From assembly GCA_047967505.1 (NCBI GenBank), contig CM106538.1: a DNA stretch of 64,000 nt. The stretch is one strand, 5' to 3'. The position numbers and the translations under genes are program-made. The stretch comes from Dipteris shenzhenensis. Lineage: Eukaryota. The notes under the pieces are model-generated. The model was not told the DNA's origin. It saw nothing but the letters and a program-made list of their open reading frames with translations, and made no database searches. Position 1 is the stretch's first letter. Each line of letters opens with the position of its first letter. This document shows, piece by piece, positions 1-29,912 of the stretch.

Positions 1-289
1 GAGGCCAATGGGAGAGGAGATAATGTTATAGAAGGACCAATGAGAGAGAAGCACTTAAAACCCTAGTTTTTCTTATATATACTCTCCTTCTCTCATTGTT
101 TCTCTCATTTCAACAAGGAAGAGCAAGAGGAGAAGCAAAAAGAGGAGGAAGAGCAAAAGCAAGCACAAGCATAGTTTTCAACTTTTTTCCAGGTACTTTT
201 TTTAAAATTTGTATTCTTTGAAATTTTATTATAGAGAGAGAACTTAGAGAGAGAAAAGTGAAGGAAATATTTTTAGAGAGAGAATATAA

Positions 290-2640
290 GAGAGAGTCTT
301 GCTGCCTCGGCAGCAAAAGAGAGAGAGAAAGAGAGAGGGAGAGAGAGGAGAGAAGGGGGGGGAAAGAGAGGGGAGAGAAAGGGAGGGGGGAGAGAAGGGG
401 GAGGGGGGGAAGAGAGGGAAGAGAGGGGGGAAGCCGTGACGGGGGGGAGAGAGAGAGGGGAGGGGGAGGCAGCTGCCGCGGCAGTGAAGAGAGGGGGGGG
501 GGAGGGGAGGGGAGGGGAGAGAGAGGGGAGGGGAGAGGGAGGGGAGGGCAGGGGAGAGAGAGAGGGGCAGCGAGAGAGGAGGGGGGGGAGAGAGAAGGGG
601 AGGGGCCGCGGCAGCGAGAGAGAGGGGGAGGGAGAGAGAGAGAGGGGGGGGCAGCTGCGACGGCAGCGAGAGAGGAGGGGGGGGAGAGAGAGAGAAGGGG
701 GGGGCCGCTGCCGCGGCAACGAGAGAGGAGACGTTGGGGAGAGAGAGAAGGGGGAGGCGTGGCAGCGCGAGAGAGGGGGGAGAGAGAGAGAGGGGGGGAG
801 GCTGCGACACGCTATCGCGGCAGCAGAGAGAGGGAGGGAGAGGGAGGAGGGGGAGGGGGGAGAGAGAGGAGGGGGGGCTGCCGCGGCAGCGAGAGAGGAA
901 CGAGGGGGGGAGAGAGAGAGGGGGGGCGCGAGAGAGAGGGGAGGGAGAGACAGAGAGGGGAGGGCCGCTGTCGCGGCAGCGAGAGAGGAGGGGGGGAGAG
1001 AGAGAAGGGGGGGCAGTGAGAGAGAGGGGAGGGAGAGAGAGAGAGGGGGGGCTGCTGCCGCTGCCGCGGCAGCGAGAGAGGGACGGGGGGAGAGAGAGCA
1101 GGGGGGGCAGCGAGAGAGAGGGGGGAGAGGGAGGGGAGGGGAGGGGAGAGAGAGAGGGGGGAGCCGCTGCCGCGGCAACGAGAGAGGGGGAGGGGGGGGA
1201 GAGGGAAGGGGGGGGGCGAGGGCAGCGAGAGAGAGAGGGAGGGAGAGAGAGAGAGGGGGTGGGCCAGTGCCACTGCCGCGGCAGCGAGAGAGGGAGGGGG
1301 GGAGAGAGAGAAGGGGGGGCAGCGAGAGAGAGGGAGGGAGAGAGAGAGAGGGGGGAGAGGGAGGGGAGAGGAGGGGAGAGAGAGAGGGGGGAGCCGCTGC
1401 CGCGGCAGCAAGAGAGGGGGAGGGGGGGAGAGGGAAGGGGGGGGGAGAGAGAGAGGAGGGGGGGGAGAGAGATAAGGGGGGGCAGCGAGAGAGAGGGGGG
1501 GGAGGGGAGGGGAGAGAGAGAGGGGGGGGCCGCTGCCACGGCAGCGAGAGAGGAGGGGGGGAGAGAGAGAAGGGGGGGATGCGAGAGCGAGAGAGGGGGG
1601 GAGGGAGAAAGAGAGAGGAGGGGGGGCCGCGGGCCGCTGCCGTGGCAGCGAGAGAGGAGGGGGGAACAGAGATAAGGGGGGGCAGCGAGAGAGAGGGGGG
1701 GGAGAGAGAGAGAGGGGGGAGAGGGAGGGGAGGGGAGGGGAGAGAGAGAGGGGGGGCCGCTGCCGCGGCAGCGAGAGAGGAGCGGGGGGATGCGAGAGCG
1801 AGAGAGAGGGGGAGGGAGAGAGAGAGAGGAGGGCGGGGCCGCTACCGCGGCAGCGAAAGAGGGGGGGGCAGCGAGAGAGGAGGGGGGGAGAGAGAGACAG
1901 GGAGGGGAGGCCGTTGCCACGGCAGCAGAGAGAGGGGGGGAGGAGAGGGAGGGGGGGAGAGGGAGGGGAGGGGAGGGGAGAGGAGAGAGAGAGGGGGGGC
2001 CGCTGCCGCGGCAGCGAGAGAGGAGGGGGGAGAGAGAGAGGAGGGGCGCAGCAGCGAGAGAGGGGGGGAGGGAGAGAGAGAGAAGGGGGGGGACCACTGC
2101 CGCGCCGAGAGAGAAGGGGGGGAGAGAGAGAGAAGGGGGTGGGAGAGGAGGGGGGCAGCAGAGAGAGAAGGGGGGGGAGAGGAGGGGGGCAGCAGAGAGA
2201 GAAGGGGGGCCGCTGCCACGCCGAGAGAGAAGGGGGGGAGAGAGAGAGAAGGGGGTGGGAGAGAGAGAGGGGGGGCCGCTGCCGCGACAGCGAGAGAGAA
2301 GGGGGGAGAGAGAGAGAAGGGGGGGAGGCGCAGCGAGAGAGAGGAGGGAGAGAGAGAGAGAGAGGGGGGGGCCGCTGCCACGGCAGTGAAAGAGAGGTAG
2401 GGGGGAGAGAGAGAGAGAGGGAGGGGGGAGAGAGAGAGAGAGAGGGGGAGGCCGCTACCGCGACAGCGAGAGGGAGAGAGGGGGGGAGAGAGAGAGAGGG
2501 GAGGGGAGAGAGAGAGAGGGGGGAGGCCTCGACAAGTGAGAGAGAGAGTGGGGAGCGCAAGTGAGAGAGAGGAAAAAGGTGAGGAGAAAGGGAGAGAGAG
2601 AGAGAGAGGGGAAATGAAGAGGAGGGGAGAGAGTAGACTA
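290..2640 (+). repeat. Purine-rich (GA/GG) low-complexity tract with many copies of the palindrome CGCTGCCGCGGCAGCG
   Basis: Almost only G/A except for recurring GCCGCTGCCGCGGCAGCGAGAG motifs. Confidence 0.95.
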
Positions 2641-2710
2641 AGATGAGAGGAAACGTAGACTAGAGCGAAAAGGAAAGAGAGAGAGAGAAGAGTGAGAGAG
2701 ATGGACGAGA

Positions 2711-3330
2711 GATGAAAATTTAGAGAGGGAGGACACGAGAAAGTACGATCGAGATAGAAAATCTTACCAATGAAGAGGAGAAATGAGTGGGCGACGATCG
2801 AGAAAAGATAAAGGAGCTACGATCAATGAGGCATATGAGAGGAGATTGGTGTGTGATTTAGTCGAAACTTAAACAAACAAAACTATAAACCTTTGGTGTT
2901 TGATGATAATTTAGAGAGGAAGGGCACAAGAGAAAGTACGATCGAGATAGAAAATCTTACCAATGAGGAGAAAAAATGAGTGGGCGACGATCAAGAAGAG
3001 ATAAAGGAGAGATGTTTTGATGGAAGAATTTGGGAGCTACGATCAATGCGGCATATTAGAGGAGATTGGTGTGTGATTTAGTCGAAACTTAAACAAACAA
3101 AACTATAAACCTTGGTGTTTGAAAAGAGAAACGTGTGGAAACTAGAATTTCAAATTTCCCGCCTTTTTTTAAACTATGAATCCTTGTGTTTGAAAAGATA
3201 AACGTGTGAAAACTTGAAAATTGTGATAAAAGACAACCTTGTGTTTCAAAAGACAAAACGCGTGGATGTGAAAATTGTGATAAAAGACAACCTTGTGTTT
3301 CAAAAGACAAACACGTGGATGTGAAAAGAC
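2711..3330 (+). repeat. ~190-220 bp tandem duplication followed by ~56 bp short repeats
   Basis: GAAAGTACGATCGAGATAGAAAATCTTACCAATGA...GATTTAGTCGAAACTTAAACAAAC occurs twice; GAAAATTGTGATAAAAGACAACCTTGTGTTTCAAAAGAC occurs twice. Confidence 0.9.
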
Positions 3331-4733
3331 AAATGTATGCTAGAAGCAAAACTTGTAGAAACTTGAATTTAAATTTTTCTTTGTTTTTGAATTTAAAATG
3401 AGTTTCACTTTCATTTTCAATTTACTAGTTTAATTTAGACTATAATGCATTTTGTTTTGGAATATAAAAAGTATAATTTTAATTTTATTACATTTAGATT
3501 TTAAAAGTAGTTTAACTTACATTCGTTATTATTACTTTAATTTATTTCTTTTTAGGGAGAATTAATATATTCTTCTAGGTAAATATTAAATTTTTAATTT
3601 TAAGTCTTGTTTTCTTTATTTTATGTTATTTTTTCATAAACTTTAAGTTAAACTACTTTATAGTTTTTATTATTTAAATTTAAATTTATTAAGATTTTTA
3701 ACTTCTTATTAATGTGAATGTTCAATTCTTATGAGTTGTAAGTAAATTAGTTTTTGAAAATATAAATTTTATCTTTTTAAAATGAGAAGGGGAAGGGAGA
3801 GAGAGAGAAGGGGGGGGCCGCTGCCACGGCAGCAAGAGAGAATGGGGGGGGAGAGAGAGAGAAAGGGGTGGGAGGATGGGAGTGGGAGAGGGAGTGGGAA
3901 TGGGGAAGATGAAAGAATGGACGTGGGCGTGGGAGTGAGAATGGGGGAGGTGGGGTAGGAGGATGGGGGCGGCAGCGAGAGAGAAGGGGAGGGAGAGAAG
4001 GGGGGGAGAGAGAGAGAAAGGGGCGTGAGTTTAGAAAAGATAAAATATAAATTTTATCTTTTTTAAACTCACAACCTTAGTGTATTAAAAAGAATAATGG
4101 AAAACAGATTATTTTTTGCTTTTAATTCGCAACCTAAGGATATTAAAAAGAACAATGGAAAAGAAATTATTTCTTGCTTTTCTTCACTTCGACGGTTGGT
4201 GTAGTCTAGATTAGCATAGATTAGTTTGTCCTTAGAGGAGAGAACTCCAAAAAAACCAATCAAAGCCATGCTCAAAATTTTTCGACTAGATCCTAATCGG
4301 AGTTAGTCCATTCGTTCACATTCAGTTTCACAGTCACAACCACCCTACCATTTAAGCAACGATTAAGGTTTTTAAAAGTCTTTCAAGATGATTGAAAGTT
4401 GTATCAGTGGACATGACAGATTACAGTTGTGGAAGTTGACAGAGCATTTTACACTTATATCAGTTGCGGGAGTTGACAGAGCATTTTGCACTTATATATG
4501 ACAGACTTCAAATTTGTATTCAGAGATCATTGTAAATCCTTATTTTTTTTCACATTTATGCTCTAAGCATTGTAAAGCCTTTTAGGCTATTCCCAAAGCA
4601 TGAAATTGATACTTATATGATTGGGAAGAATAAAAACTTGAGGTGTATTAATGGGACTCATTGTACTTTTGATTTTTCAAAGTAATTGTAGTTTGTCAAA
4701 GTACTTAAAATTTGTGTTGTGCTTGAATACAGG

Positions 4734-5042: not shown

Positions 5043-5142
5043 NNNNNNNNNNNNNNNNNNNNNNNNNNNNNNNNNNNNNNNNNNNNNNNNNNNNNNNNNN
5101 NNNNNNNNNNNNNNNNNNNNNNNNNNNNNNNNNNNNNNNNNN
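5043..5142. other. Assembly gap (100 N)
   Basis: Run of 100 N; true size and relative contig orientation unknown. Confidence 1.
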
Positions 5143-5445
5143 TCTTTCCCCCCCCTTCTCTCGTCTCTCTCCCTCTCTCTTTCTTTCTCTCTTTTGCTGC
5201 CGAGGCAGCAAGACTCTCTCTCTTCTTTTCTCTCTCTAAAAATCTATCCTTCAAAAATTTCAAAGAATACAAATTTTAAAAACAGTACCTGGAAAAAAGT
5301 TGAAATCGATGCTTGTGCTTGCTTTTGCTCTTCCTCCTCTTTTTGCTTCTCCTCTTGCTCTTCCTTGTTGAAATGAGAGAAACAATGAGAGAAGGAGAGT
5401 ATATATAAGAAAAACTAGGGTTTTGAGTGCTTCTCTCTCATTGGT

Positions 5446-6300
5446 CTCACTCCCATCCTCCCACCCCACCTCCCCCATTATCACTCCCACGCCCACGCCC
5501 ATTCTTTCACCTTCCCATTTCCACTCCCTCTCCCACTCCCATCCTCCCACCCCACCCCTCCCACTCCCACCCTCACTCCACCCCCACCTCCCCCATTCCC
5601 ACTCCCACTCCCACTCCCATTCTCCCACCCACTCACATCCTCCACCTACACGTCTCACTCCCACTCCCATCCTCCCACCCCCCACCCCTCCCCCCCCATT
5701 CCCACTCCCACTCCCATTCTCCCACCCTTATCCTCCCACCTCACCCCTCCCACTCCCATCCTCCCACTCCCATTTTCCCACCCCCCCACCTCCCCCATTC
5801 CCACTCCCACTCCCATTTTCCCACCCCCCCCACCTCCCCCACTCCCACTCCCTCCCCCATCCTCCCACCCCACCCCTCCCACTTCCACCCCCACCTCCCC
5901 CATTCCCACTCCCATCCTCCCACCTCACCCCTCCCACTTCCACCCCCACCTCCCCCATTCCCACTCCCTCTCCCACTCCCATCCTCCCACTCCCACTCCC
6001 CACCCCACCCCTTCCACTCCCACTCCCATCCTCCCATCCTCCCACCCTCACCCCACCCCCACCTCCCCCATTCCCACTCCCACTCCCATTCCCACTCCCA
6101 TTCTCCCACCCCCACCTCCCCCATTCCCACTCCCTCTCCCACTCCCACTCCCACTCCCACTCCCACTCTCCCACCCCCACCCCCACCGCCCCCATTCCCA
6201 CTCCCTCTCCCACTCTCCCTTTCTCCCACTACCACCCTCCCACACTCCCTTTCTCCACTTTCCCACTCTCCCTTTCTCCCACTACCACCCTCCCAACTAT
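5446..6300 (+). repeat. C-rich (ACTCCC/ATTCCC/ACCCCC)n hexamer tract; G-quadruplex-prone on the minus strand
   Basis: Directly visible degenerate hexamer repeat. Confidence 0.93.
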
Positions 6301-6374
6301 CAATTCCACTATTACTTATAAATTCTAATTAAAACTATTACTTAAATAAATGATATTACTTGAAAACACTCATA

Positions 6375-7155
6375 GGATTTAAGGTTTAGGATTTCGTGGT
6401 TTGGGTTTAGGATTTGGGGTTTGGTGAGTTAGGGTTTAGGGTTTAGGGTTCAAGGTTTGAGGGTTAGGGTTTGGGGGTTAGGGTTTAGAGTTTGGTGGTT
6501 TAGGGTTTAGGGTTTAGGGGTTAGGGTTTAGGATTTAGGGTTTGGGGGTTAGGGTTTAGGGTTTGGGGTTTAGGGTTTAGGGTTTGGGGTTTAGGGTTTG
6601 GGAGTTAGGGTTTAGGGTTTGGGAGTTAGGGTTTAGGGTTTAGGGTTCAGGGTTTGGGGTTTAGGGTTTGGGTTTTGGGAGTTAGGGTTTAGGGTTTAGG
6701 GTTTGGGAGGGTTTGGGAGTTAGGGTTTAGGGTTTAGGGTTTAGGGTTTGGGGGTTAGGGTTTGGGGTTTGGGGGTTAGGGTTAAGGGCTTAGGGTTTAG
6801 GAGTTAGGGTTTAGAGTTTAGGGTTTGGGGGTTAGGGTTATGGGTTTAGGGTTTAGGGTTTCGGGTTTGGGAGTTAGGGTTTGGGGTTTGGGGTTTGGGA
6901 GTTAGGGTTTAGGGTTTAGGGTTTAGGGTTTAGGGTTTGGGAGTTAGGGTTTAGGGTTTAGGGTTTAGGAGTTAGGGTTTAGGGTTTGGGGTTTAGGGTT
7001 TAGGGTTTGGGAGTTAGGGTTTGGGGTTTGGGGGTTAGGGTTTAGGGTTTGGGGTTTGGGGGTTAGGGTTTAGGGTTTAGGGTTTAGGGTTTAGGGTTGT
7101 TATTGGTTAGGATTTAGGGTTGTTTTGGTTTACGGTTTAGGGTTTAGGGTTTATG
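6375..7155 (+). repeat. Interstitial telomere-like array (TTTAGGG with TTAGGG, TTTGGGG, TTTGGGAG variants)
   Basis: About 780 bp of plant-type telomere motif and variants. Confidence 0.97.
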
Positions 7156-7242
7156 GTTGTTATTGGTTAGTGTCTAATTAAATTTTCAAACACGTTCTGG
7201 ATTTTTAAATCATTAATAAAGTAGATTATTAAGAAGAGACTA

Positions 7243-10200
7243 ATGTTCTTTATAATGGTTGTTACAGCTTGTTTGCAGAGGAAACTCACAAAGGAGATGG
7301 CTACAAAATTTATTCCGGGGATGGAGGTGATTTTATGTTGCAAAAGAGAAGTAGTTGCATTTGCTACAATCCATGAAAGTGATCCAAATTCTATTTGTCA
7401 CTTTAGAAGACTTGGCGAAGATAAGGTAGCGGTTATCGTATCAAGGATTCTTAGTGCACATGTTGAGCTAAAGCATAAGTGTGGGGATATGGAAATCCTT
7501 GGAGATGTTATGCCCTATAATACTTCCAACAAAGCATTTATTGCATGGGACAGAGATGAGACTTATCCAACACATGTCATCAGGAATACAAAGTGCATAT
7601 CTTTGGATTTTAGAGTGGGAGATATTTTACAAATGTTATCATTTACAAATAAGTATGTAGCAGAAGGTCAAGTCTTGGGATTTGAACAAGTTGAACACTG
7701 GACATTTGCGCAGATGAGAATTCAAAAAGTTACTGATGATGGTATGGATGATAACTCAATGTCATTGGATGGTCCCTACTATGAGGTAGGTAAGGATTTG
7801 AGATGGAGCATGCAATTTTTAAAGATTGGAAAGACTCGGCATGTGGTTTTTAATGATAAACATAATGTATACTACAACATCAAAGAATTGAAAGAATATG
7901 CCAATGTACCAAGCTCTATTCCTTCAGAGATGGATGATTCCAATGCACTCAACTATAGCACTGACGTCTTATCAGAAGTCGATGAGTTCATTGGTACCGA
8001 GAAAGAAAAATATTTCACAAGTGATGCCTTATCCGGGGTGGATGAGTTCATGCACATTGAGAACTTGGGCAAAGATGTGAAAAGTGTTATATCTTCAAGC
8101 ATGGATGGCTTCATGGATACTGATAAAGTTCTTGGAGTCAAAGCAGGTAACTATGGAATTATGGAAATCATGCACGATAGTATAATGAGTGATGTTCTCT
8201 CTGGAGTAGAGGAGTTTCAAGACTATGGAGTTATGAAATCCATAGAAAGTGCATCAATGAGCGATGTTCTCTCAGGAATAGATGAGTTTGAAGATCATTC
8301 TGGACAGTCTATCACCACTGACTATGGAGTTATGAAATCCATAGAAAGTGCATCAATGAGTGATGTTCTCTCAGGAATAGATGAGTTTGAAGATCATTCG
8401 GGACACTCTAATGCCATTGTGACAAGTGGTTCTACGATTGTATCAAAAGTAGGGATGAGATCAACAAAGGACTATTCGGTGTTTGACTTTGATTGTGAAC
8501 TTGTAAATGTTACAAATGGTTTGACGAATGTATCAAAAGCAAGGATGACATCAACAAAGGAATATTCAGTATTTGACTGTCAGAGTGATAAGATCAAGGA
8601 TGCAACATCTCATGAAAACAACGTGACAAATAAATCTTACAAGGAGAACTACACAAATCCAAATAAGAATGAACAGAAGGTCCCAAAACGGACATACAGA
8701 TGCATGAAAAGACAACGAGTGCAGGCAGATCTAGAAAAGCAACCAAAGAGAATAAGAGTAATGAATGAAGATGTTATGCTAAAAGCAATGCGATCTACAT
8801 GCTGTAAGCATACATGTATGCGATCCATTAACTTACATGACATCAAGGGTTGTAGAGAACATGTATGGCAAAGGAAAGGAAGCAGAAGAAATGAATACCT
8901 ACTCACGAGATTGTCTTGCTTTCTTGTAAATGATAAGAGAAGGCGAAGTTCAGGACATCAAATAAGGCCTCTTATAAATGGAAAAAGTATATGCAATAAT
9001 GCATATCGCATTATTACAGGATTATCACATGGCACATATTGGAATTTGGCTAATAAAGCAAAGTATGGAGTTAAATTTAACATTCATGGAAACATAGGAA
9101 GGCCCAAAACAAGAGCCTCAACGGTTGCGGCAACAGCAATTTTGAAAGATTACATTTATGAAAATGCTTTACCACAACCCCACCTATCAGAAATGCATCT
9201 TCCGATAGGTTTGACCAAAAAAGAAGTATTTAACTCTATTGGAGAAACACAGAGGCAAAGAGGGCATGCACCGGCATCTTTTCATACTTTGTATACTCTT
9301 TGGAAAAAAAGCTTTGGACATGTTAAAATCCCAAAGAGGCAAAAAATGTCAAAGTGCAACGACTGTGATGATCTAAAGCGAGCACTTGAGAGTGCAACAT
9401 CTCCAGAACAAAAAGAAGCTTACAAAAGAAAGAGAGAATTTCATCATGGACTTGTTCGACATTCTAGAATAAAATATGCATTTTGGAAGGAGCAAGCTAT
9501 TTCTCACCCAAATGAGTACATGTGCATTATTGTAGATGGTATGGATCAAAATACAACAACATTACCTTGATTCGTTAACACTCCACCTAAGCTACAAGGC
9601 AAATACTTTTTAAAGACACATCTATGTGGAGTGTTAGTGCACGGATTTAAGTTTTTGGCAGACATATGGATTGATTCCTTGCATCTACACGATAGCAATC
9701 AAGTTGTAACATCCGTTATGAAGGCAATTCACAATGTACATGCAAAAAAAAGGTCGCCTACCAGCAACTTTGAGAATACAAGCAGACAATTGTGGACGAG
9801 AGAATAAGAATGTACTCTTCTTTGCATTTTGCTCAACGCTAATCGCTCATAGAATCTTCAATGAGATTGAAGTTGGGTTTTTGTTGGTTGGGCACACACA
9901 TGAGGATATCGATCAGGTATTTAGCACAGTTTCAAGAGAACTAAAACACAAGGACATGGAGACAATGGATGACTTGATAAGAAAATGCGGGAGGCAAGTT
10001 GGTGGCCGTAAGGAAGCAACAATATGCTCAATGGTTGAGAGGATGTATGATTGGAAGAGCTTTATTCTACCTTTCATACAAAAAGGTGGTGATGCCCTGA
10101 TTGGTCATAGCGCTCCACACTATTTTCGATTTTTCTTAAAGGATGAAAAACCAGTGATGCAATGGCAACACTATTCTCTTGATACAAAATGGGAACCTGA

Positions 10201-11005
10201 AGAACCTTACTCTCTCTTAACTTCAATCCCGAGCAAAGAAATGCATCCAACATGGGCTCCTATAAAAGAATTCAGCGAGAAATCCAAAGGTGAAATAGAA
10301 GGCTTAAAAGCTTTTATTGCATACAAAGAGGAAATGCTCCGGAGATTTCCTGATTGGAAGCCCTCTTGGAAGGAACACACTACTGTTGTAATTAGCAAGA
10401 CCTACCAATTGATAAAGGACCTTGCAAAAATGCGAGAAGATGATATTAAGGCAGAACGGCCTTTATTTTGGCCAAATGTTGGTAATGACTTGCGTCCAGC
10501 ATGTGGTCTCTTTGAAAATGAGTTTGAATCGTTGCTCCCACGTCCATATTGTGGACCCAAGAAGAGAGAGTTTATGCCACAAATAGACATAGATGTCCAT
10601 TGTTTTGTTGCAGTTCGACCATCGGATGATGAACATGAGAACGTGAAGTTTTGGGTTGCAAAAGTAGTTGACGTGAGCATGGATGACTGGGGGAGAGCTA
10701 CAACATTTACAGCGGTATGGTATGAGCCAAGGGGCAGGAAGGAGAACCAAGATAACAGTACATTGTATAGTAGTTGTTTGAAAAAGGAATGGGTCCCAAA
10801 CCATGAAGCAATTTCAAGACTTTCCACAGAGACAGTCATAGTATCCTGGAAATCAAGGTCAAAGAAAACAAAGAAACACATGGGGTATGATGTAGAAGAC
10901 AAAATAAAATTACCGCAACCAATTATTACGCACATTACAGAGTTCACAAAGATGCTCGCCCGGGAGGAAGTAGAAGGAGATAGCGCAAATGAAGAATGCC
11001 CATGA
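7243..11005 (+). pseudogene. ~1250-aa DDE transposase (Sola1/DUF7869-type core), disrupted by one stop and one frameshift
   Basis: Motifs CCKHTC, KCNDC, IIVDGMDQ, QADNCGRENKN and FLLVGHTHEDIDQVFS. TGA at 9568-9570 (probably from CGA) is followed by in-frame FVNTPPKLQGKYFLKTHLCGVLVHG. An A8 run at 9744-9751 shifts into ORF 9734-11005. Confidence 0.85.
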
Positions 11006-11639: not shown

Positions 11640-13631
11640 TTATGTGAAAATGATAGTGCCAGAAAGTAAACTTTTGATTCTCGAATGACAGTTTCATAAA
11701 GTAAACTTTTCAGTTGGGAAGGATTTTAAGGAATAGTCCAAAAGTAGACATATGAGTCCAAAATTAATGAAATAAGTGTTTAGAGGGACTTTTGGGAGAT
11801 GATGGAAAGCAGTGTGGTTGCACCAGGCATCCTAGAGCATGTAGAGTCCCTGTGTAAATGGTTTTGGGCTTGGGATATTTTTATCTTCAGATGTGTCCTT
11901 TTGTGTTCCTCAGAGAAGTTTTTTTTCTATCACTCAGAGAGCTTCCCGTTAATGTGGAGTCTACATTTGTGAAGTATATGTGCCCTGGGTGAGTGCCTAT
12001 GACAGGAATGTGGGTTTTTATGGGCTTGAGGAGGTTTGTCATCAGTGAAATTTGAAGTGGAGGTGCTAGATTGTGCCTTGGTACTAGTATTTCTTCAGTG
12101 TGTGGGTAGAGTGGTCTTAAAAAATGATGATGTGGCTATTTGTGAGAGAAGGCAATCCATGCAAGCAAGCATGGTTACGTAAAAGGAAAGAAGAGCTTCT
12201 GGAGAAAAAAAGAACATGTACGTGGAAAAGGTGGCGAAAAGATGGTCTTGGAAGGTAGTATGTGGGCACACGAAGGATCGACACAGAGGAAAGAGCTACT
12301 GGAGAGTCCGGAAGAGGAGGTACTACTAGACAAAGAAGGGCGACACGCATGTTCTAGGAGGAGGAAGCTATTGCAGGGTGACAAAACGCGGGGTTTCAGC
12401 TTGCTGGAGAAGGCAGAGGTCATAAAGCTTGGGAGGTCACTGTTGTGGTGTGGTTATTGTGTAGCACGGTGAACCTTGGGTGATAGGATTCTGATAAGGG
12501 CTTCATGAGTTCTGTGAGTTAGGGAAGTCGATTGGGAGCTTCGCGACTTGGCTGGAGATATCTACTAAGGAGGACAAGGAGCTCGTGGAGGGAGTCCCCA
12601 GCTAGGTGTGGCAAACTGTGTGGATGGAGGCCTCTTGATGAAGGGGTCATCACGTGTAAAGAGCAGAACTCTTCAAGTCTCTGTTGCAAAGTGAGAAGCA
12701 TTACTACAGGTGGAGAAGAGCTCTGAGAAAAGATTCAAGCATCGTGGGCACCCAGAGGATCTTAGAGGGCAGAGAGGAGCTCTAGAAGAGAGCACAGGTC
12801 ACTGCTGAGTGGCTAGAAGGAGCTCAGAAGCATCAGGGCCAAGATTAGATAGAGAAGGAGATCTTTTGATGGGAGCTCTGAAGCAAGGGAGAGCGGCTGC
12901 AGTGTGGACGTGATTACAGACTGTAGGGTCTAGAGGGAGGCCAAAAATATATGAGGCATGGGAGAGGCTTGAGTGCGAGAAGGAACAAACGGGGATGGGT
13001 CGCTACTAGACGAGTTGGAGAGACCTTGGCTGTGAAGAGCTTTGGGAGTTGGCGTTGTTACTATGCGGCCAGGGAGATCCTTGGATGATGCGGGTGGACT
13101 ATGGCTTGGTAGAAATCTTGAGGGCTTGGTTGTATCTCGGTCATGGAGAGTCTTGGAGAGATAATGGGCCAGGAGGGAGATTTGATGAGATGATAACCAT
13201 ATGATAAAGACTGATTGCCACGTATAAAATAGCCATAGCAACTCTAAAGAGGCAAGAGACTAGGATAATCTGGTTGCAAAGAGGTGTGGAGTCTCTTCAA
13301 TCCGATGAAGTGAGTGGGAGATCTGAAGTTTGCTTCTAAGTGGATTCAAGAAGAGTTGTGGTGATTATACTAAGCTGATCTAAAGAGAGCGTGGAAGCTC
13401 TACATAATTCAGTAAAAGGAAGAGCGCCACTGTTGATGATTTCCTCTCTTTGTAAGCCTACCATGAGTACGTATTGTGGTAAATCATTACTATATGCATA
13501 TGCTATGTTTTCCAATTCTCATTGTTAAAGATTGATTTTGTAGTGAGTATCACATTGGATTGCGAATTGAGGAATTGTTACCTAGCAAACTCACATTGGA
13601 TTGTGAATTGAGGCATTTTTACCGAGCAAAC
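11640..13631 (+). mobile_element. Possible LTR or retroelement non-coding relic, ending in a 41-bp tandem duplication
   Basis: Purine-skewed non-coding block with no convincing ORF. TCACATTGGATTG(C/T)GAATTGAGG...GCAAAC occurs twice (13550-13631). No PBS or second LTR identified. Confidence 0.25.
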
Positions 13632-15649: not shown

Positions 15650-18600
15650 TTATCTTATGCATCTGAATCTCGTTCAGAGTCATCAGATTCATGTAATGTA
15701 TTTGCGCTTGATGGGTCAAGTCTTGCCAAACGATGTTTAAAATGAACACGACTTGGATCGGGGATTGTGGTACATTTTTCAACATTGTATCCATGCTTCA
15801 TTTTAAAACTTCGTGTCTTTGATTTCTAGCAATGAATAATGCTACTGACTTCCACCTCTATTAATCCCTCATTATTTGGAACCCATTCACGTTTCTTTTG
15901 CAAGCATCCCTCATAGAGTTGTTTTATTGTATATCTTCTCCGGAGATTTTTCAATGGCTTTGGTTCATACCATAAAGCTATAAATGTTATAGGAGTTCCC
16001 TTGTCATCCCTTTCTATCTTAGCAACCTTTGCAATCCAAATTGGGCCACCTTGGTCATCCAACTTTGAACCTGGATCAAATGCCCAAACTGCAACAAATA
16101 GACCCTCTTCAATCTCATTAGATGGTATAAACTCTGGTAAGGGTTTGTCTCCCTTCCTGCCACAATATTTTTGAGGTAAAAGGCATTCCTCTACTTCCTC
16201 CATATCTACTAACATATTTATATCCAAAGGAAAACTTCGTGACCTAGCTTGTTCCAGCCAAAAGGATTCACAGTATTTAATGCTCATTAAGTTTTATTGT
16301 CTTTCTAAAGATTGGATAAGTTCTTCAGTTGATTTAATTGTCTCCAAATTCTTAGTTGATTGCTCAAGATATTTTTGCATCATACTTTGAAGATGTTTAA
16401 TGAAGGATTTCAAGCCTTTCATTTCATCTATGTCAAGTGATTTGTTTTTTGCAAGAACAAATCTAGTTTCCTCCAATGGAATTATTCGTTGTAATAAAGC
16501 ATATGACTCACTCCATAAATGATCTCCATCTACTGAGCAGTGCTTCCATTGCATCACTGGAATATTGTTATGCATGTGAAACCGAAAGTAGTGTGGATTT
16601 GTGTGTCCTATTAGGGCATCATCTCCTATTTGTAAATGTGGCTCTATCAATGCTCTCCAATCTACCATCCTCTCTAAGATAGCCACTTCTGATTCTTCCT
16701 TGCGAGAACCTCCAATTTTTTTCCCAATTCGAAATAGCATATCCTCCATTGTCAAAACATCCATTGCCTTCAACTCACCAGAGATAACACTGAAGATTTG
16801 ATCTATGTCTTCATGTGTATGGCCGACAAGAAGAAAGCTATGAATAAGTTTTTCTTTCACCTTTGCCCAGATGGTCCAGTATGTGCCATGTGATAGTCCA
16901 GTTAACCATTGATATCCTCGATTACAAATGGGTCTCCCATTAACCATGGGTTTCAATCTAGGTTTATAGTGTCTTGTGCTCGAATCTTGATTAGTGCCTT
17001 GATGAAGAAAGCATGAAAACTCTTGAAGAAGATAGTTATGTCTATTAGGCACTGTCTTACTCCAAATACCAAGGCATATGGCTGCACAATCATCTTTCCC
17101 AACTTTTCTAATGCAAAGTCTCTTGCAACAAACTTGCATAAGCATCCTTTCCATATTCTCCTCGGATAGCATCACATGTCTCTTTGGTTCTGGAATTGAT
17201 GCCATGATTCTTCGCCTCTTCACACCTCACATACTTTCTTTTTGTAAATAGTGTCTTGCGTTCTCTAGTTATAAGACCATCAAACCTCGAATCCATTTCC
17301 CTTGAATCTTCATCTTTATAATCAAATGCTATGTGGGCTTGAGAATTATTTGGTACCTTATAATATCTTGGAAATGGCAATCTGGTAGACATGTTCATTG
17401 ATGTCAATTTGTTGCCAATGCCTCTTGAATTTTGTGGTTGAACTGTTTCTCCTTCGTAACTCAAGATTCTCCCATCTATATTCTCTGGCATGCTAGCAAC
17501 AATATTATGAACAACATGACAAGTCTCAAATTCTCTGCCCCTTTTGCCTTGTGTTCGAGTCTTGTGTTCGAGTGGTAACATCATGATCATTGTCACTAAT
17601 ATCATCAATTCATGTTATTGCATCACTTATCCCATCGATCTTTGCATGTATTTTTCTTTGTGGTCCCATCTTATTATTCTCAACACAAGACAAGTCTTCT
17701 ATATCAATAAGCATGTTTGAGTCACTTGCAGCACAAGACAAGTCTTCTATACCAGTGAGCCTGTTCGAGTCACTTGCAACACATGACAAGTCTTCTATAC
17801 CAGTGAGCCTGTTTGAGTCACTTGCAACACATGACAAGTCTTCTATACCAGTGAGCCTGTTCGAGTCACTTGCAACACAAGACAAGTCTTCTATACTAGT
17901 GAGTATATTTGAGTCACTTGCAACACAAGAAACCTTTTCTACATCAACATCTATTACTATAATGTCCTCAATACCTATGAGCATACCACTATGATACTCT
18001 TGATTACTACTATAGCTTCTTATCAATTTGGATCCCATTTGTGTTATAGTCTTTTTCTTCTGATAATATTCCGTTGTGTCTTCCATGACATTGAAGGAAA
18101 CTGTCTTGGGCAAACTTGATTTCATAAAAGCTAACCCCCATTTACAAGTACTATGAACTTGTAGTTGAGACGTAGTATTATGGACGTCTAAATGTGAAGT
18201 ACTATCCATTGCATTTTGAATGACACCTGCACTAGTCAACTTAATTATCTCCACTATATAGAGAAAACTCTGAGCATAGCCCTTAAAGTTGCCAATTGCT
18301 AAAACTTCTCCGGAGCAAGATAACATCTCTACTTTTTTCCCCTCAAAATAAGTATTCTTGATATCTTGAAAGTATGTCTTTGAAACAATTTCGTCTTGGT
18401 CCCAGAGTGTTTTGTGTGCTTTCATATCAAATATGTCACATTGTAAGATATCTCCCAATGTTTCAAAGTCTCCATGTGGATATTTTAAATGTACTTCAGG
18501 ATTTACAACATTGGTGATTATCACTACACATCTTCTCTCACCACAATGTTGGAAATGACACACATTCATAGGATCAAGACTATGAATTCATCCAAAAGCC

Positions 18601-18655
18601 ACCACTCCATTCTTCTTATATAACACCACATCCATACCCTCTGTTAGGGTGAATA
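15650..18655 (-). pseudogene. Second, divergent copy of the Sola1/DUF7869-type transposase, with an internal deletion, stops and frameshifts
   Basis: Collinear with copy 1: GMDVVL..GVVAF, CHFQHCGE, CCKRLC, NGRPICN..TGLSHGTYW, FLLVGHTHEDIDQIFS, ALIGHTNPHYFRF, WIAKVAKI..WYEPK, GYNVE. Confidence 0.85.
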
Positions 18656-18764: not shown

Positions 18765-18990
18765 TAAACCTAAACCCTACATCCTAAACTTTAAATAATT
18801 AATACCAAAACATCTTAACCACCGTAAATCCTAAACTTTAAACATTTAATTCCTAAACCCTAAACCCTAAATCCTAAACTCCTAAACAATAAATCCTAAA
18901 CCTTAAACCCTAAACTCTAAATCATAAACCCTAAATCTTAAATCCTAAACCCTAAATCTTAAATCTTAAACCCTAAACCTTAACCCTAAA
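18765..18990 (-). repeat. Degenerate telomere-like array (CCCTAAA/TCCTAAA on +)
   Basis: CCTAAACCCTAAACCCTAAATCCTAAA runs. Confidence 0.9.
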
Positions 18991-18999: not shown

Positions 19000-19560
19000 A
19001 AATTTAATGATTTTTTTAAGTTTGTGCAATAGGTTGGATATATCCCCCAACCTGTTGCTTGAGCAACAGGTTGGATATATCAAGCAATAGGTTGGGGGAT
19101 ATATCCAACCTGTTGCACAAATCAAGAATTTTTCTTATTTGTGCAACAATTTGATATACAGTTGGGGAATATATCCAACCTACAACTCAAAAATTTTCTT
19201 GATTTATGTAAGGTTGGATATACCCCCAACCTGTTGCTCAAGCAACAGGTTGGGAGGTATATCCAACCTGTTGCACAAATCAAGAATTTTCTTAATTTGT
19301 GCATCAGGTTGGGGGTACCCCCCAACCTGTTGCTTGAGCAATAGGTTGGAGGCTGTTGTTGGATATATCCCCCAACCTATTGCTTGAGCAACAGGTTGGG
19401 GGGTATATCTAACTTGTTGCTCAAGCAACAGGTTGGGGGGTATATCCAACCTGTTGCACAAATCAATAAAATTCCTTGATATTTACAATAGGTTTAGTGC
19501 ACCATTAACCTATTCGACTTGCAACAGTTTGGAGGATATATCAAACCTATTGCACAAATG
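19000..19560. repeat. Cluster of hairpin motifs CAACCTGTTGC(TTGA/TCAA)GCAACAGGTTG
   Basis: More than ten full or half copies in both orientations, with GGATATATCC spacers. Confidence 0.92.
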
Positions 19561-19589
19561 GAAAAAAATCATAAAATTTTGATTGTATT

Positions 19590-20010
19590 TTAGGGTTAAA
19601 GTTTAGGGTTTAGTATTTAGGGTTAAGGATTTAGGGCTTAGGATTTAAGATTTAGTGTTTAGGGTTTCGTGTTTATGATTGTCTTTAGGGTTAGGGTTTA
19701 GGATTTAGGGTTTAGGGTTAAGGGTTTAAAATCTAGGGTTTAGGGTTTAGGATTTAGCATTTAGGGTTTATGATTATTGTTTTAGGGTTTAGGATTTAGG
19801 ATTTAAGTTTTAGGTTTCAGGGTTTAGTATATAAGATCATGAGCTTAGAGTCTAGAATCTTGGGTTTAGAATTGAAAATTAGGTTCTAGAATTTAAGTTA
19901 TAGGGGTTAGGGTTTAAGGTCTAGGGATTATAACTGTTATATAAGTTTAAGAGCTTAGATTGTATAACCTAAGATTTAGGGAACTTTAGGATTTAAGATT
20001 TAGGGTGTAA
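19590..20010 (+). repeat. Degenerate telomere-like array (TTTAGGG/TTTAGGA)
   Basis: TTTAGGGTTAGGGTTTAGGATTTAGGG runs, decaying to the right. Confidence 0.88.
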
Positions 20011-21770: not shown

Positions 21771-22185
21771 AGGTTAGGAGAGAAATTTCTAAAAATAGGT
21801 TGTGAGAGTTTGAGGTAAAGAGAAAAATTTATGGGAAAAAAGATTTAATGCAAAAATGGTTTTTTAAGTTATTGTGTACACACAAGTTTTTGAGAAAAGG
21901 ATCGGATTTGAAAAAAAATTCAAATTTATAAAAACTTGATTCTTAGAAGTTCTTACGTACACAATAGGTTAGAAATGAAGTCACCTCTTGCAACATTTTG
22001 AAAATTTTTGAGAATCCTGCAACAGGTTGATGAGAGGAGAGAAGCGTGGAGTGTAAGCGAATGATCTTTGAATGAAAGAGAGAATGAAGAATGTTCTACT
22101 TATAGTGAACCTAAAAGAACTAAAAAAACTTTAAAAACTAAAAAAATCTAACTTGACCTAAAAGCTACCGATTTCCTATAAAACT

Positions 22186-23990
22186 CTACTTCTCCTCATT
22201 CTCTCTCACAACTCTCCTTATTCTCTCTCGCAACTTTCCTGGAGCTCCACCACCTCTCCACCCAGGTACTCCCTCCCTCCCTCCCTCTCGTCCCTCCCCT
22301 CCTGCTTCCCATCCCCTCTTCTCCTGCTTCCTCTCTCCCCTCCTTTCCCCTCTCCTCCCTTCCCTCCCTTGCCCTCCCCTCCCCCTCCCTTCCCCTCTCC
22401 TCCCCCTTCTTCTCTTGCTTCCTCTCTCCCCCTCCCTTCCCCTCTCCTCCCGCTTCTCCCCTCCCTCCTTCGGCTTCCTCTCCTCCCCTCCCTTCCCCTC
22501 TCCTCCCCCTTCCCCTCTCCTGCATTCCGCCTTCCCCTCTCCTCCCTGCCTTCCCTTCTGCTCCCCCTCCCTTCCCCTCCTCTCCCTCCTCGCTGGCCCT
22601 TCCCCCTCCCTTCCTCTCCCTCTGCCTCCCTGCAGGCCCCTCCCTCCTTGCCGTCCCTCCCTTCCCCCCCCTCCCCGCGGCCCCTCGCTCCCCTTCCCCA
22701 CCATCCCTCCCTTCCCCCCCTCCTGTGCCCCCGCCCCGCCCCCTTCCCCTCCCCCGTGCCCCCCCTCCCCCACCCCGCCCCCTTACCCTCCCCCGCGTCC
22801 CCCTCCCCCTCCCCCTCCCTCGCCCCGCCCCGCCCCCTTCCCCTCCCCCACGCCCCCCCTCCTCCTCCCCCGCCCCCTTCCCCTCCCCCTTCCCCCCCCC
22901 CCTGTTGAGCCGACGGAGAGGCGGGGGAGGGGAGGGGCACGGGGGAGGGGCAGGGGCAGGGGAAGGGGGAGGGGTAGGGGCAAGGAAAGGGGAGGGGGCG
23001 GGGGCGGGGCAGGGGCGAGGGGGAGGGGAGGGGGAGGGGGCGGGGCGGGGGAGGGGAGGGGGAGGGGGGGCCCCCTCCCCCTCCCCGCCCCACCCCCTGC
23101 CGCTCTCCGCGCCCTCCCCCTCCCTCCCGCCCCTCCCCCGTGCCCCTCCCCTGTGCCCCTCGCCCTCCCCTCCCTCCCCCGAGGGCGGGGGATGGGGCGC
23201 AGCGGGGAGGGGGAGGGGGAGGGCCCCCCCTGTTGCGCGCGCAACAGGTGGGGGGGGGGATGGATCCCCCCCACCTGTTGCACACGCAACAGGGGGGAGG
23301 GAGGGGAGGGCGAGGGGCACGGGGGAGGGGGAGCTCACGAGGAGGGGGGGAGGGGAGGGGTGCAGGGGAGGGAGAGGGGGCAGGGGGGGAGGGGGAGGGC
23401 AGGCAGGGAGGGGGCCCCCCCTATTGAGTGCACAACATGGGGAAGGGGGAGGGCGAGGGGCACGGGGAGGTGGAAGGGAGGGGGGTGCGGGGAGGGGGGG
23501 GGCAAGGGCACGAGGGAGGGGGAGGGAAAGGGGCGGGGGAGGGGGAGCGGCCGGGTTGGGGGGGGGGTAACCCCCCCATCCACGTGTTGTGCACGCAACA
23601 GGAGGGAGGGGGGGTGAGGGCGCGGGAGGGAAAGGGGCAGGGAAGGCGGGAGGGGGAAGGGAGGAGAGGGGGGTTAAGGGGGAAATTCCCCCCCACCCAC
23701 TTGTTGCGCACGCAAGAGGGGGGAGGGGAGGCGCAGGAGCAGGAGGGGAAGGGGAGGGGCACGGGGAAGGGGCAGGGGCAGGGGAGGGGGAAACGAGGCA
23801 GGGAGGGGAGGGGAGGTTGGGGGGGTTGGGAAGCGGAGGGGCAGGGGAAGGGGTGGGGATGAGGGAGGGGAGGGGGGTCAACCCCCCACTTGTTGCACAC
23901 ACAACAGGGGGAAGGGGGGCAGGGGAGGGGAGGGGAAGGGGAGGGGCACAGGGAAGGGACATGGGCGGGGAGGCGGGAAGGGGGAGGTGG
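22186..23990. repeat. Very GC-rich pyrimidine-then-purine tract with CCTGTTGC-N4-GCAACAGG palindromes at C/G switch points
   Basis: For example CCTGTTGCGCGCGCAACAGG at ~23229 and CCTGTTGCACACGCAACAGG at ~23274, with variants at ~23420, 23585, 23700 and 23890. Confidence 0.9.
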
Positions 23991-24339
23991 ATGAAAAGAA
24001 TTAATTAACTTAATTTATTTTAAAAAAATAAAAAAGTTAAAATAAATAAAACTTACAAAAATTTAAAAAATTAAATTAAATTTTAAATATAAAAATAAAC
24101 TAATTAACTTTGTACTTGGTCATCGGGTAGACTACCTTAGTACCCATCCAGGATCGAGAGTGGGACATGGTAGGATGGGGCATCTAGAGCATCAGCGGCG
24201 TTGATGCGAGGCACCAGAGCTGCACACTATCCCTGCACCGGCATTGCAAGCTATTGGAGGATGGATTAGGGGGGATGTTCATTCAATGGCCTCATCCTTG
24301 CATGACATGGTCTCTGTCCTATTGAGATAACTTTCGATT

Positions 24340-25530
24340 CCACCTCCCCCACCTCCCAGATCTATGGAGCCTCCCACATCTACACCACCTCCCACATCTA
24401 CACCGCCTCATGGATACTTGAGATGCACAGATTGCAGAGTTGAGTCTAGGGTCATGGATATTATTCTGATTATTTTAGTTTATTTTTTTGTTGCGTGTTT
24501 TGAACTGAAGTTTTTTGGTTCATTCTCACCATATACGTGACATGTTTGCTTGGCAGGCACATCTATTGCGACAGGATATGGAGTCTCGTGTATGACAGTT
24601 GGAGGCAGATTTAGAGCAGAGGATTCAGACATGCATAGCCTACCATGGAGCGGAGCACTATATTTTGCAGTTGAGACATATTAGTCATGATCCATCTCGC
24701 CATAGGATCCACCCCAGTGTGGCCCTATACCCCACTCCTCCTACCCCACTCCTCCTGTAGATGTGCTGACTAGGACACCCATAGATGCACCAGTCAAAGC
24801 CAGGCTTCCTACTGCCACTTGCATCCTCTGCCATAAGGATTTTGACACCGTAGGGTGGTTTGGACTAGGGTGCGGCCACATCGCACATCTCCATTGCATG
24901 ACCTGCCACATGGTGGCACGATCAATGTGCCCTGTATGCTTTGCTGACATTGATGTGGCCACATACAGAGGACTAGGCATGGATGATCTATATCTTGGTC
25001 ATGGTCAAGCCGTTGATCGATTTGCCCATGTGGTCTTGACAGAGCACTACAAGGAGGAGGCACAGAGAGCTTTGCTGTAGAATAAGGGTGCTGATACTTC
25101 AATGGTTATAGCGTGTGTTCCGCAATGCTTCTCACATGGTGATTTCAAGCCAGGTGACGAGGCACGAGCAGAGGAGGCACATCGTATTGAGCGAGAGGCA
25201 GAGCTTCATATATCATTGCAGTAGTGGGTGGAGCAGCAGCTTGGGCGGACAGCATCTTCTACATGTAGATATGATTACTTGCATTGGATTTGAGGCACGA
25301 GTATTTGCAGATGCATGACTTTGGGAGTTGAGGCGCATACATAAAGGAGGCGAGGGAGGTAGAGATGGGAGTAGTGGCTCATGCAGCATGCCCTCCTCTT
25401 CATCAGGATGAGGCTGGCCCATTTGATCTAGGAGATGAGGCTGGACCATTTGATCCGGCTTTGCCTGAGGGCACATAGTGGATGGTTGGGCAGCGGGTCA
25501 TATAGGAGCCATGTCAGAGGATGACTAGAA
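24340..25530 (+). pseudogene. Degenerate gene encoding a Pro-rich/coiled-coil segment plus a RING-H2 finger
   Basis: ORF 24763-25080 contains CILC-x13-CGHIAHLHC-x10-CPVC (~24820-24939). Upstream exon after TTGGCAG reads AHLLRQDMESRV*QLEADLEQR. Multiple stops. Confidence 0.7.
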
Positions 25531-25925: not shown

Positions 25926-26149
25926 CTATGAACTTTATCATTTTGAATATCATATTGAATTTCATATATATCAATGCTTGCAATTATTACACTAATATTA
26001 TCACTAATTTTTGTAAATTGTAGATTAAGAAAAAAATGTCAATGTTTAGCATGGAATGGTGCTCATTGGTAGTAACATGTGTCAAACATTAATACATAAT
26101 TATGTACGATTGGTCCAAAATCATATAATACATATATACTTTCTCATAG

Positions 26150-28775: not shown

Positions 28776-29099
28776 TTAGTCACATTTTTTAAATGTCCCA
28801 AAGCACAAAACACAATTACAAAATAACTACTAATAAACAATTTTTTGTTTTACAAAAGCAACAAATCCCATTGAGAAGATAACGGACATCATGTATAAAA
28901 TAGAATCTAATACAATGATGTGTATGAATGTGTATAAAACCATCATAGTGAAATACAAAATATGAGTCCATGAAAATTACAATGGTACGGTCACACAGTG
29001 AGCCTATACATATCGAATACAAAAATATGTAATCAACTAGTGATACCCAATAAAAATCTATCTGATCAACTGATGATCCCAAAACTATGATATGTAATG

Positions 29100-29912
29100 T
29101 GCTAGAATACATGTATGCCGCCATGTACTCCTGGAACTTCCTGCATCCTGATCATCATGTACCTTCTCCCAAGGCTGGAAGGGAGAAAGCACTCGTCGTG
29201 CCCATGGATCGGCCCATGGTATCATGGCGCACCCTCCCTAGTCATCATCAATGCATGCGGAGAAAAAACATGCAAACTGTCGAGAAAAGATTATGGGGTG
29301 AGACTCACCTATGCTCCTGATGGAATGGAAATCAAGAGTGCCAGACATTGAATGACAATCAAAAGGCCTAGATAGATCAAGACTCACAATGTCCACGCAC
29401 CAAAAATATTGGCTCATCGCCCTATCATCATGCAACTGAAATGAGGCGATAGCACTAGTGGATAAGTGATGTCTTCACCACTGCATCACATCATGTACAT
29501 CCTTGAAGCGATCGGCACTGTGACGCAATTGGTATCGATGCAAAGCATGCTTCACACAAGAACCTACACCATCATGCTCTCCCTTACCATGCACTATCTC
29601 GAAGTAGCTCCATGTGATCGAAATGCATGTCTCACGGTGCCATCTGTAGAACCAATAAAACTGTCTAGCAGATTTGAACTGACCACCACAGCTGTCTAAC
29701 CAGATCCAGCACCACTGCCATGTGACACCATGATCCCTCAAGAAACTATCATGCAAAGTGAAACAATGCTGCACAAAATGGGCATCATGCAATCGATCAT
29801 CACTAATGTAGAAGTGATACTCTCGCACAATGACGCGTGAGTCCATGGTGCTATCAATGCCATCCACATGAGCCTGTGCATGACGATAGCTAATGTGCAC
29901 AAATATAGCAAC
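29100..29912 (-). pseudogene. Sola2-like DDD transposase, C-terminal catalytic exon
   Basis: YISDDRLHDAHFVQ...WLDSCGGQFKS...WSYFEIVHGKGEHDGVG...GTLDFHSI...RQFACF. TTGCAG acceptor at ~29913; in-frame stops. Confidence 0.75.

Follow-up and report, generated by a model that had tools for sequence, protein, structure and literature searches.

The choice of insertion site by DNA transposons is poorly understood, save for a few cases in which a host factor tethers the enzyme. Sola enzymes are reported to be transposases of the DDD type (three catalytic Asp residues), and the Transposase_23-type domain has its place at the C-terminus of TNP1/TnpA proteins. A preprint on chromatin evolution counts 823 gene models in which chromatin domains, mostly Chromo and PHD, are joined to domains of transposable elements; in its accessible part, BAH comes up for a host gene alone, ASH1L (10.1101/2021.11.30.470311). 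The hallmark of Sola1, as given in the accessible part of its source, is a 4-bp AWWT target-site duplication flanking terminal inverted repeats (PMC3845634). Here we analysed a stretch of 64,000 nucleotides of Dipteris shenzhenensis DNA (assembly GCA_047967505.1, contig CM106538.1), hereafter the window, which carries a transposase gene of the DUF7869 family that we call copy 1. In the literature that we found (Repbase reports and subscription papers fall outside its scope) no paper mentions DUF7869, none appears, from title and abstract, to deal with a BAH-bearing transposase of the DDE type (Asp-Asp-Glu), none joins Sola1 with BAH, and there is no structural or functional description of Transposase_23, PF03017 or DUF8039; the architecture of copy 1 appears undescribed in that literature.

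Copy 1 occupies 7243..11005 on the + strand and is a whole, decayed transposase gene with a single open reading frame (ORF), recognised from the ORF list, from the Pfam match to DUF7869 and from homologs spanning the DDE core and the tail. Once its reading frames are joined, it is one intronless gene of ~1,255 codons with two lesions, and the single-exon transposase proposed by an earlier sequence-only reading of this DNA is in this way borne out, though the frame is broken by a stop and a frameshift. A diverged paralog, copy 2, lies on the - strand at 15700..18638 (tblastn, ORFs and Pfam DUF7869). The locus itself is an ordinary dead transposon copy, and its interest lies in the family architecture that copy 1 exposes.

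We give a probability of about 0.65 to the reading that copy 1 is a cut-and-paste DNA transposon of the DUF7869 family, now decayed, with a multi-domain layout shared in the family and with a presumed tethering to chromatin. Its transposase of ~1,255 amino acids (aa) would consist, in this order, of two N-terminal barrels, an acidic linker, a basic stretch, a Cys-rich region, the core and a BAH-like barrel. The core would cut and paste the element, using the Asp residues in DGMDQ, ADNC and HTHEDID, and the BAH-like tail, possibly with help from the N-terminal barrels, would serve to tether the transposase to nucleosomes marked with methyl-lysine. Such tethering would steer insertion and would have its analogue in the chromodomains of some retrotransposon integrases; chromatin targeting by the tail, or a preference in insertion, is inferred.

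Regarding the core, the first catalytic Asp motif, DGMDQ (9535..9549, +), has two Asp columns that are nearly invariant in an alignment of 17 sequences. It is followed at 9595..10177 (+) by the Pfam match to DUF7869 (PF25273), which is the second half of the RNase H-like core and includes ADNCGRENKN and GHTHEDIDQ. The match scored 144.1 bits (E 5.1e-42) on the frame 9722-11002 and 24.2 bits on the short middle piece 9571-9807, the curated cut-off being 26 bits, and Pfam gave no match in the first 781 aa of copy 1. Invariant in the same 17 sequences are the Asp of ADNC (D22), NKN (N28-K29-N30), GHTH (G57-H58-T59-H60) and both Asp of HTHEDID (D62 and D64), its Glu not being invariant. Our homolog search returned 135 proteins at E<=0.001 among 2,285 candidates, and the counts given below refer to the 120 that were listed. 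All of these 120 carry PF25273, and a regular-expression search found the DGMDQ-, ADNC- and GHTH-type motifs in 102, 110 and 106 of them respectively. Apart from the two lesions in its frame, copy 1 has all the core motifs intact. Judged from these residues, the core is an RNase H-like DDD/DDE transposase with three acidic motifs in the expected order, and catalysis is predicted. All the motifs quoted in the sequence-only reading are where it had placed them within 7243-11005, and of the core type that it proposed the DUF7869 part holds (E 5e-42); "Sola1-type" is the label of that reading, which is not confirmed here, and we assign the core to DUF7869 only.

The C-terminal tail (10601..10978, +) comprises a BAH-like barrel at 10601-10897 and then a helix at 10916-10978, as delimited by an AlphaFold2 model, Pfam on relatives, a profile search and Foldseek. 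A local iterative search found it in 86 of the 120 listed homologs, and in 71 it ends <=60 aa from the C-terminus. The AlphaFold2 model, made from a 37-sequence alignment, had a predicted local distance difference test (pLDDT) of 86.9 and a predicted template modelling score of 0.80. When tails were scanned singly, Pfam BAH (PF01426) was the only recurrent family, matching 10 of 37 with a best E of 0.0014, which is sub-threshold. Furthermore, the tail profile had seven matches at E<=10 among the sequences of solved structures and all were BAH proteins, including SHL (E 0.0045, profile positions 20-117), DNMT1 BAH1, ORC1 and EBS, with the whole BAH core spanned. Foldseek with the tail model gave nothing at E<=0.001; its best E was 7.3e-3, and BAH-containing proteins occupied 38 of the 39 rows listed. 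These results support a tail that is BAH-like rather than Tudor, so that one half of the former description as "BAH/Tudor-like" can be kept and the other dropped.

In the accessible part of its description, the aromatic cage with which SHL holds H3K27me3 is formed by Tyr41, Trp63 and Tyr65 (PMC6013494). A profile alignment to SHL places W (10652-10654), W (10718-10720) and E (10724-10726) at these positions in the copy 1 tail, and Y, W and W in a clade of homologs, the closest of full length, that we call P0001-like. The W63 column is nearly invariant in the tail alignment, as is its neighbour F40, and cage position 41 was read as W in most tail rows and as Y in the P0001-like rows. From these residues, the tail is plausibly a methyl-lysine reader.

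At the other end of the protein there are two small beta-barrels. Unit 1 (7324..7569, +), which resembles TNP1/Transposase_23, was delimited by the AlphaFold2 strands at residues 10-91 and by hhalign, and unit 2 (7624..7827, +) by residues 110-177 of the model, by structural matches and by hhalign. The model of the 191-aa query, made from a 20-row alignment with a pLDDT of 73.8, shows the two beta units (10-91 and 110-177) with like strand order. A metagenome scan, in which 505 of the 597 candidate stretches encoded relatives and 80 loci were kept, gave two intact ORFs, L001 (1,058 aa) and L003 (1,063 aa), each of which combines a pair of N-terminal units with DUF7869 and the tail; an earlier metagenome scan with homolog P0001 as query had given nothing. 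In hhalign, unit 1 of the copy 1 family matched unit 1 of L001 and L003 with 94.9% probability (E 4.5e-8) and the four L001/L003 units with 96.2% (E 2.3e-9). It also matched the N-termini of four P0028-like proteins from a distant clade (77%, E 2e-5, 81 columns), and the P0001-like N-termini matched the four L001/L003 units (83.7%, E 8e-6). Compared directly with the P0001-like N-termini, unit 1 of the copy 1 family gave a non-significant result (E 0.062) despite a similar pattern, and the reverse, P0001-like hidden Markov model (HMM) missed the copy 1 N-terminus, so the link between these two comes only via the L001 and L003 units. Unit 2 of copy 1 matched unit 1 of L001 and L003 at 44.9% (E 2.2e-4), which together with the two beta units of the model, and more weakly than they do, supports the second similar unit noticed by the sequence-only reading.

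The wider searches with these units returned little. A word-index search with the N-terminus had no match, a region search with residues 40-140 of P0001 returned only 7 proteins that were already known, and an exhaustive HMMER search with the N-terminus among 1.8 billion representatives gave 10 matches, nine of them short fragments and two (P0129 and P0130) looking like low-complexity noise. With a combined N-unit HMM, three more homologs (P0033, P0083 and P0076) proved to have the unit at their N-terminus. On these sequence comparisons the N-terminal units are one repeat family. We also observed a match to the N-unit HMM (E 1e-6) in a 109-aa ORF just upstream of the transposase ORF of L003 (L003:443-769), which may represent a decayed unit or else a third one in a different frame.

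As for the fold of the N-terminus, the best Foldseek matches of the two-unit model were the tandem Agenet domains of AGDP1 and ADCP1 (E 1.0e-3 to 5e-3), with a root-mean-square deviation (rmsd) of 8-12 A, followed by the tandem Tudor domains of 53BP1 and UHRF1, SAWADEE and KOW pairs, also with high rmsd. In VIA-align, unit 1 had its best Z of 6.5 with the Spt5 KOW domain and unit 2 its best of 7.1 with the 53BP1 Tudor domain; the best structural matches of unit 2 were Tudor, SAWADEE and KOW domains (Z 6.5-7.1), and the two barrels together matched NtAGDP3 with Z 5.5 at an rmsd of 6.6. The models thus suggest small SH3-like barrels in tandem, of a kind that the structure matches leave unspecified. 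The check by AlphaFold and Foldseek that the sequence-only reading had proposed was in this way carried out for both ends, with a list that is nearly all BAH for the tail and with Agenet-, Tudor- and KOW-type barrels at high rmsd for the N-terminus.

Several results weigh against the tethered transposase that we favour. Three of the five N-terminal models had a pLDDT of 68-74 and the other two were poor (47); the best VIA-align Z of the N-terminus was only 7.1, and the unit profile had only spurious coiled-coil matches among solved structures. The VIA-align scores of the tail are tied, with MazF at 7.2, chromo-barrels at 6.5-6.6 and BAH at 6.0-6.3, none of them >=8. Since the Z scores are middling and tied for both the tail and the N-terminus, structure alone leads to no more specific name than SH3-like barrel. 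The copy 1 tail has no Pfam BAH match at E<=5 and is below the Pfam criterion, and for this reason we call it BAH-like and not a member of Pfam BAH; its third cage position, SHL Tyr65, is a non-aromatic Glu. Likewise, the copy 1 N-terminus has no Pfam match even at E<=10 and every Transposase_23 (PF03017) match on relatives is below the Pfam cut-off of 21 bits, the best reaching 20.1, and the N-terminal module is therefore named TNP1-like. No convincing terminal inverted repeats were found around copy 1, L001 or L003 and no target-site duplication was found, so the hallmarks of mobility and of a superfamily are not established. Finally, histone binding and insertion preference are functions that we infer from sequence and models.

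The alternative that survives best accepts the tail as the only part touching chromatin and gives the N-terminal barrels another task, namely binding repeated DNA near the 5' end of the element, as the accessory proteins of En/Spm do. We consider it rather unlikely, and yet it has several observations on its side. The one Pfam family that the units resemble takes its name from the TNP1/En/Spm accessory proteins, and there are KOW-type barrels among the structural matches. In L001 (527-1583), within the 1.1 kb upstream of the ORF, the 16-bp palindrome TTGGCCATATGGCCAA occurs 8 times with <=3 mismatches, ~100-280 bp apart, when 0.06 copies are expected by chance; from their sequence these palindromes may be candidate subterminal binding sites. 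Upstream of copy 2, Tandem Repeats Finder reported 37-bp palindromic repeats at 19372-19461. In the window, telomere-type arrays precede both protein starts: a (TTTAGGG)n array at 6373..7158 (+) stops 157 bp short of the conserved GM(E/D)V of copy 1, and a degenerate one at 18781..18990, on the - strand as copy 2, stops 143 bp short of the GMDV of copy 2 (Tandem Repeats Finder and sequence), both in the same orientation relative to the gene. The window has four such arrays (6373-7158, 18781-18990, 19589-19827 and 58247-58924), and by a rough reckoning from this number of arrays in 64 kb, chance would be unlikely to produce two placements of this kind, with odds of the order of 1e-4. On the other side, histone readers with tandem Agenet and Tudor domains head the Foldseek list of the two-unit model, and the end of another, unrelated repeat adjoins a TTTAGGG array as well, at 58248, so the arrays are perhaps simply common in the region. 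Two further observations were made there: the arrays 18781-18990 and 19589-19827 face each other across ~600 bp, and the palindromic repeats CCAACCTGTTGCTCAAGCAACAGGTTGG, with a 37-bp period, occupy 19063-19482, just beyond the array upstream of copy 2, and are reminiscent of the palindromes that precede the ORF of L001.

The same arrays can be read in a more ambitious way. The elements might belong to a widespread, undescribed eukaryotic clade of DDE-type transposases in which a BAH-like tail with cage residues and N-terminal tandem Tudor/Agenet-like barrels, homologous to TNP1, would together steer insertion into marked heterochromatin or telomere-type arrays. This would account for the position of both copies, which share only 31-37% identity, ~150 bp downstream of TTTAGGG arrays and, if true, it would be the first structural and functional assignment for the TNP1 domain. 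We hold it to be doubtful.

The likeness of the N-terminus to Transposase_23 could also be due to chance or convergence, the N-terminus then being a generic pair of SH3-like barrels that shares no ancestry with CACTA proteins. The matches themselves are as follows. Two of the fragments found by HMMER, P0126 and P0127, weakly match Transposase_23 (E 0.016, 15.5 bits and E 0.034, 14.4 bits; 54 of the 66 model positions) and have no other Pfam match. Unit 1 of L001 matches it with E 0.0014 (18.9 bits) and the tandem units of L003 with E 5.6e-4 (20.1 bits, two stretches), and it is the only Pfam family other than DUF7869 matched on L001 and L003. In favour of chance, none of these matches attains the Pfam cut-off, none is on the copy 1 N-terminus or on the P0028-like (4 scanned) and P0001-like (10 scanned) N-termini, the scans contain other single weak matches of similar E-value, such as ToxB_N and TolB_N, and look-ups with a protein language model returned nothing. 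Nevertheless, of 24,736 families it is the same one that comes back on four proteins, which belong to three subfamilies with only ~20-30% identity between them; each match falls on an N-terminal unit and covers most of the 66-position model; both L003 units match; and Transposase_23 had been named from the letters before any search was made. We therefore think chance or convergence unlikely, and the N-terminal repeat family probably related in sequence to Transposase_23, although not by Pfam's own criterion. What was formerly described as a Tnp1/DUF8039-like N-terminus is in this way partly supported, by sub-cut-off matches to Transposase_23 on relatives, copy 1 itself having none.

Whether this layout was put together at the locus can be judged from its distribution. 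A core tree was computed with a quick IQ-TREE run (LG+G4, SH-aLRT support only) on 97 rows, after 25 of the 122 (the 120 homologs and the two window copies) were left out for matching <150 profile positions. Copies 1 and 2 group together (support 99) and are sister to the P0001-like clade (17 rows, support 99), in which the rows without the N-unit or the tail are shorter proteins missing that end (757-842 aa versus 1,044-1,070 aa). The P0028-like carriers of the N-unit are distant in the tree, inside a 51-row clade of tail-bearing proteins, and most of the rows without a tail are named animal proteins. Because the N-unit is shared with the sister clade, with a clade far off in the tree and with metagenome loci, the layout was not assembled at this locus; on this sequence evidence it is old and common within the family, either ancestral with losses or moved between family lineages. 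Since the tail is shared by 86 of the 120 and the N-terminal module by several distinct clades, the special chimera that had been suggested for this locus has to be given up. That this element recently captured its TnpA/TNP1 domain from CACTA, in this genome, is consequently very improbable and looks refuted already, although there are CACTA fragments of the TNP2 type in the window (Transposase_21, DUF4218 and Transpos_assoc) and the donor class is therefore present in the genome. Moreover, copies 1 and 2 both carry the module and are only 31% identical in it, a tblastn search with the copy 1 N-terminus across the 64-kb window found only copy 2, and no TNP1/TnpA family was found in the CACTA fragments or in the window ORFs outside the element (107 ORFs at E<=0.01 and 45 ORFs at E<=1).

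Among the metagenome loci we also observed two DUF7869 ORFs with a long extra N-terminal region, L030:220-4773 (1,518 aa) and L059:1018-5352 (1,445 aa). By eye this region looked SET-like, which was not confirmed, as Pfam at E<=0.1 shows DUF7869 only.

Regarding the reading frames of copy 1, the first ATG is at 7243 and the homology to relatives starts near the ATG at 7297. The frame 7225-9567 encodes 781 aa, with VVAFATIHESDPNSICHFRRLGEDKVAVIV...LGDV...FIAWDRD and then YVAEGQV...LRWS, and contains the DGMDQ motif near its end. It is closed by an in-frame TGA stop at 9568-9570 (+), past which it continues to 9807, so that the piece 9571-9807 overlaps the +1-shifted frame 9722-11002. The latter encodes 427 aa, with ADNCGRENKN at 9782-9811, GHTHEDIDQ at 9890-9916, CFVAV at 10601, FWVAKV at 10649 and VWYEP at 10715. 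From the overlap of the two frames, the site of the frameshift is a run of eight A at 9742-9749 (+). In the contigs of the public sequencing runs X1, X2 and X8, position 9568 is C in other copies, and in public-run contigs other copies are one letter shorter at 9746, inside the run of A; an error of assembly at this homopolymer may underlie the frameshift.

Between the N-terminal units and the core there are three further regions, all on the + strand. The first (7897..8630) is rich in Ser, Asp and Glu and repetitive, including a 99-bp tandem repeat at 8221-8410 (translation and Tandem Repeats Finder). The second is the basic stretch KVPKRTYRCMKRQR (8677..8718), which from its sequence is a putative nuclear-localisation-like signal. 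The third is Cys-rich (8800..9042, from CCKHTC to GLSHGTYW), with Cys columns that are nearly invariant in the 17-sequence alignment, and is presumed, from this pattern, to bind DNA.

Copy 2 keeps the N-terminal units, acidic 48-bp repeats (17681-17930), the Cys-rich region, GHTHEDIDQ and the tail, and scores 73 bits against Pfam DUF7869. Its identity to copy 1 in tblastn is 31% at the N-terminus (189 aa, E 2e-18), 35% in the Cys-rich region (124 aa, E 2e-21) and 37% in the core plus tail (393 aa, E 4e-64). An internal deletion of ~270 aa removes its first two catalytic motifs. The earlier statement that both N-terminal units are conserved in copy 2 agrees with the identity over the 189 aa, with the qualification that a stop lies inside an N-terminal unit. 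The acidic tandem repeats between the N-terminal units and the Cys-rich region are unrelated in the two copies, with a 99-bp unit in copy 1 and a 48-bp unit in copy 2, and in a diverged copy from run X8 the repeat is one 99-bp unit shorter than in copy 1. The four public sequencing runs compared have contigs with copies at 85-99% likeness, deletion derivatives among them; no contig of these runs covers 11808-13500 of the window, and no RNA run was among the public sequencing runs listed with matching sequence. A domesticated host gene derived from a transposase is hardly credible here. In its favour, chromatin-reader domains are what one expects of a host regulator, and the search for element ends was negative; against it, both copies are damaged, copy 1 by a stop and a frameshift and copy 2 by a stop and the deletion of catalytic motifs, the public runs contain many diverged and internally deleted copies, and the surroundings are rich in repeats and satellites.

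Concerning these surroundings, a GA-rich block is repeated directly at 1-4439 and 59968-63998 with ~87% identity, and a CT-rich low-complexity block with a telomere-type array forms an inverted repeat, 5143-7057 versus 60331-58248 (80-88%), which encloses ~51 kb; a run of 100 N occupies 5043-5142. There are several decayed CACTA elements of the TNP2 type (~28800-38040, 45000-48000 and 54000-58248), and two of these copies, 34362-38035 (+) and 58248-54773 (-), are ~94-95% identical, the end of the second abutting the telomere-type array. By its TTTAGGG arrays and these CACTA fragments the window looks plant- or alga-like, and among the public runs richest in matching sequence there is one labelled an algae metagenome. 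A satellite with a period of ~189 bp has 14 copies at 26140-28760 and recurs inverted ~10 kb away at 38031-39764 (84-92% identity). Finally, a short ORF at 24706-25077, adjoining a very GC-rich low-complexity block at 22157-24014, has weak RING-finger matches (zf-RING_2, E 5e-4, below the cut-off).

If the tethered transposase that we favour is real, a large family of transposases with a BAH-like reader of its own would lend itself to the study of chromatin-guided cut-and-paste insertion, with a second barrel module in several clades and with intact relatives, L001 and L003, that are directly testable. The link between the N-units and Transposase_23 suggests, in addition, a fold, a tandem of small SH3-like barrels, for a domain of plant CACTA elements that has had only a name.

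It is worth comparing this architecture with the known systems part by part. The invariant residues of the third motif are Asp here, as in an enzyme of the DDD type and in line with what is reported of the Sola enzymes. With the other DUF7869 proteins copy 1 shares the DGMDQ, DN..ENKN and GHTH.D.D motifs, found in 102-110 of the 120 listed homologs, and unlike copy 1 the named animal homologs do not have the BAH-like tail. That tail has its best sequence-profile and Foldseek matches in the plant BAH histone readers SHL, EBS and AIPP3, aligned over the whole BAH core; unlike in these proteins, with which its identity is ~16-18%, it has no PHD partner and is fused to a transposase. As regards the N-units, Transposase_23 of CACTA elements is the only Pfam family other than DUF7869 that is matched by those of relatives, with most of the 66-position model covered. 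However, here the unit is N-terminal on a catalytic transposase and is duplicated in tandem, and in TNP1/TnpA proteins, as the sequence-only reading had it, its placement is C-terminal. Taken as a whole, the layout resembles the chromodomain integrases, such as that of MAGGY, and the fusions of Chromo or PHD with transposases, as far as the accessible parts of these sources describe them, in that an enzyme of a mobile element is joined to a small barrel of the methyl-lysine-reader type for which a role in tethering is proposed. It differs from the Chromo and PHD fusions, within the same bounds, in that the putative reader module is BAH-like, sits on a DDE-type enzyme of the DUF7869 family, is family-wide (86 of 120) and is often accompanied by a second barrel module at the N-terminus.

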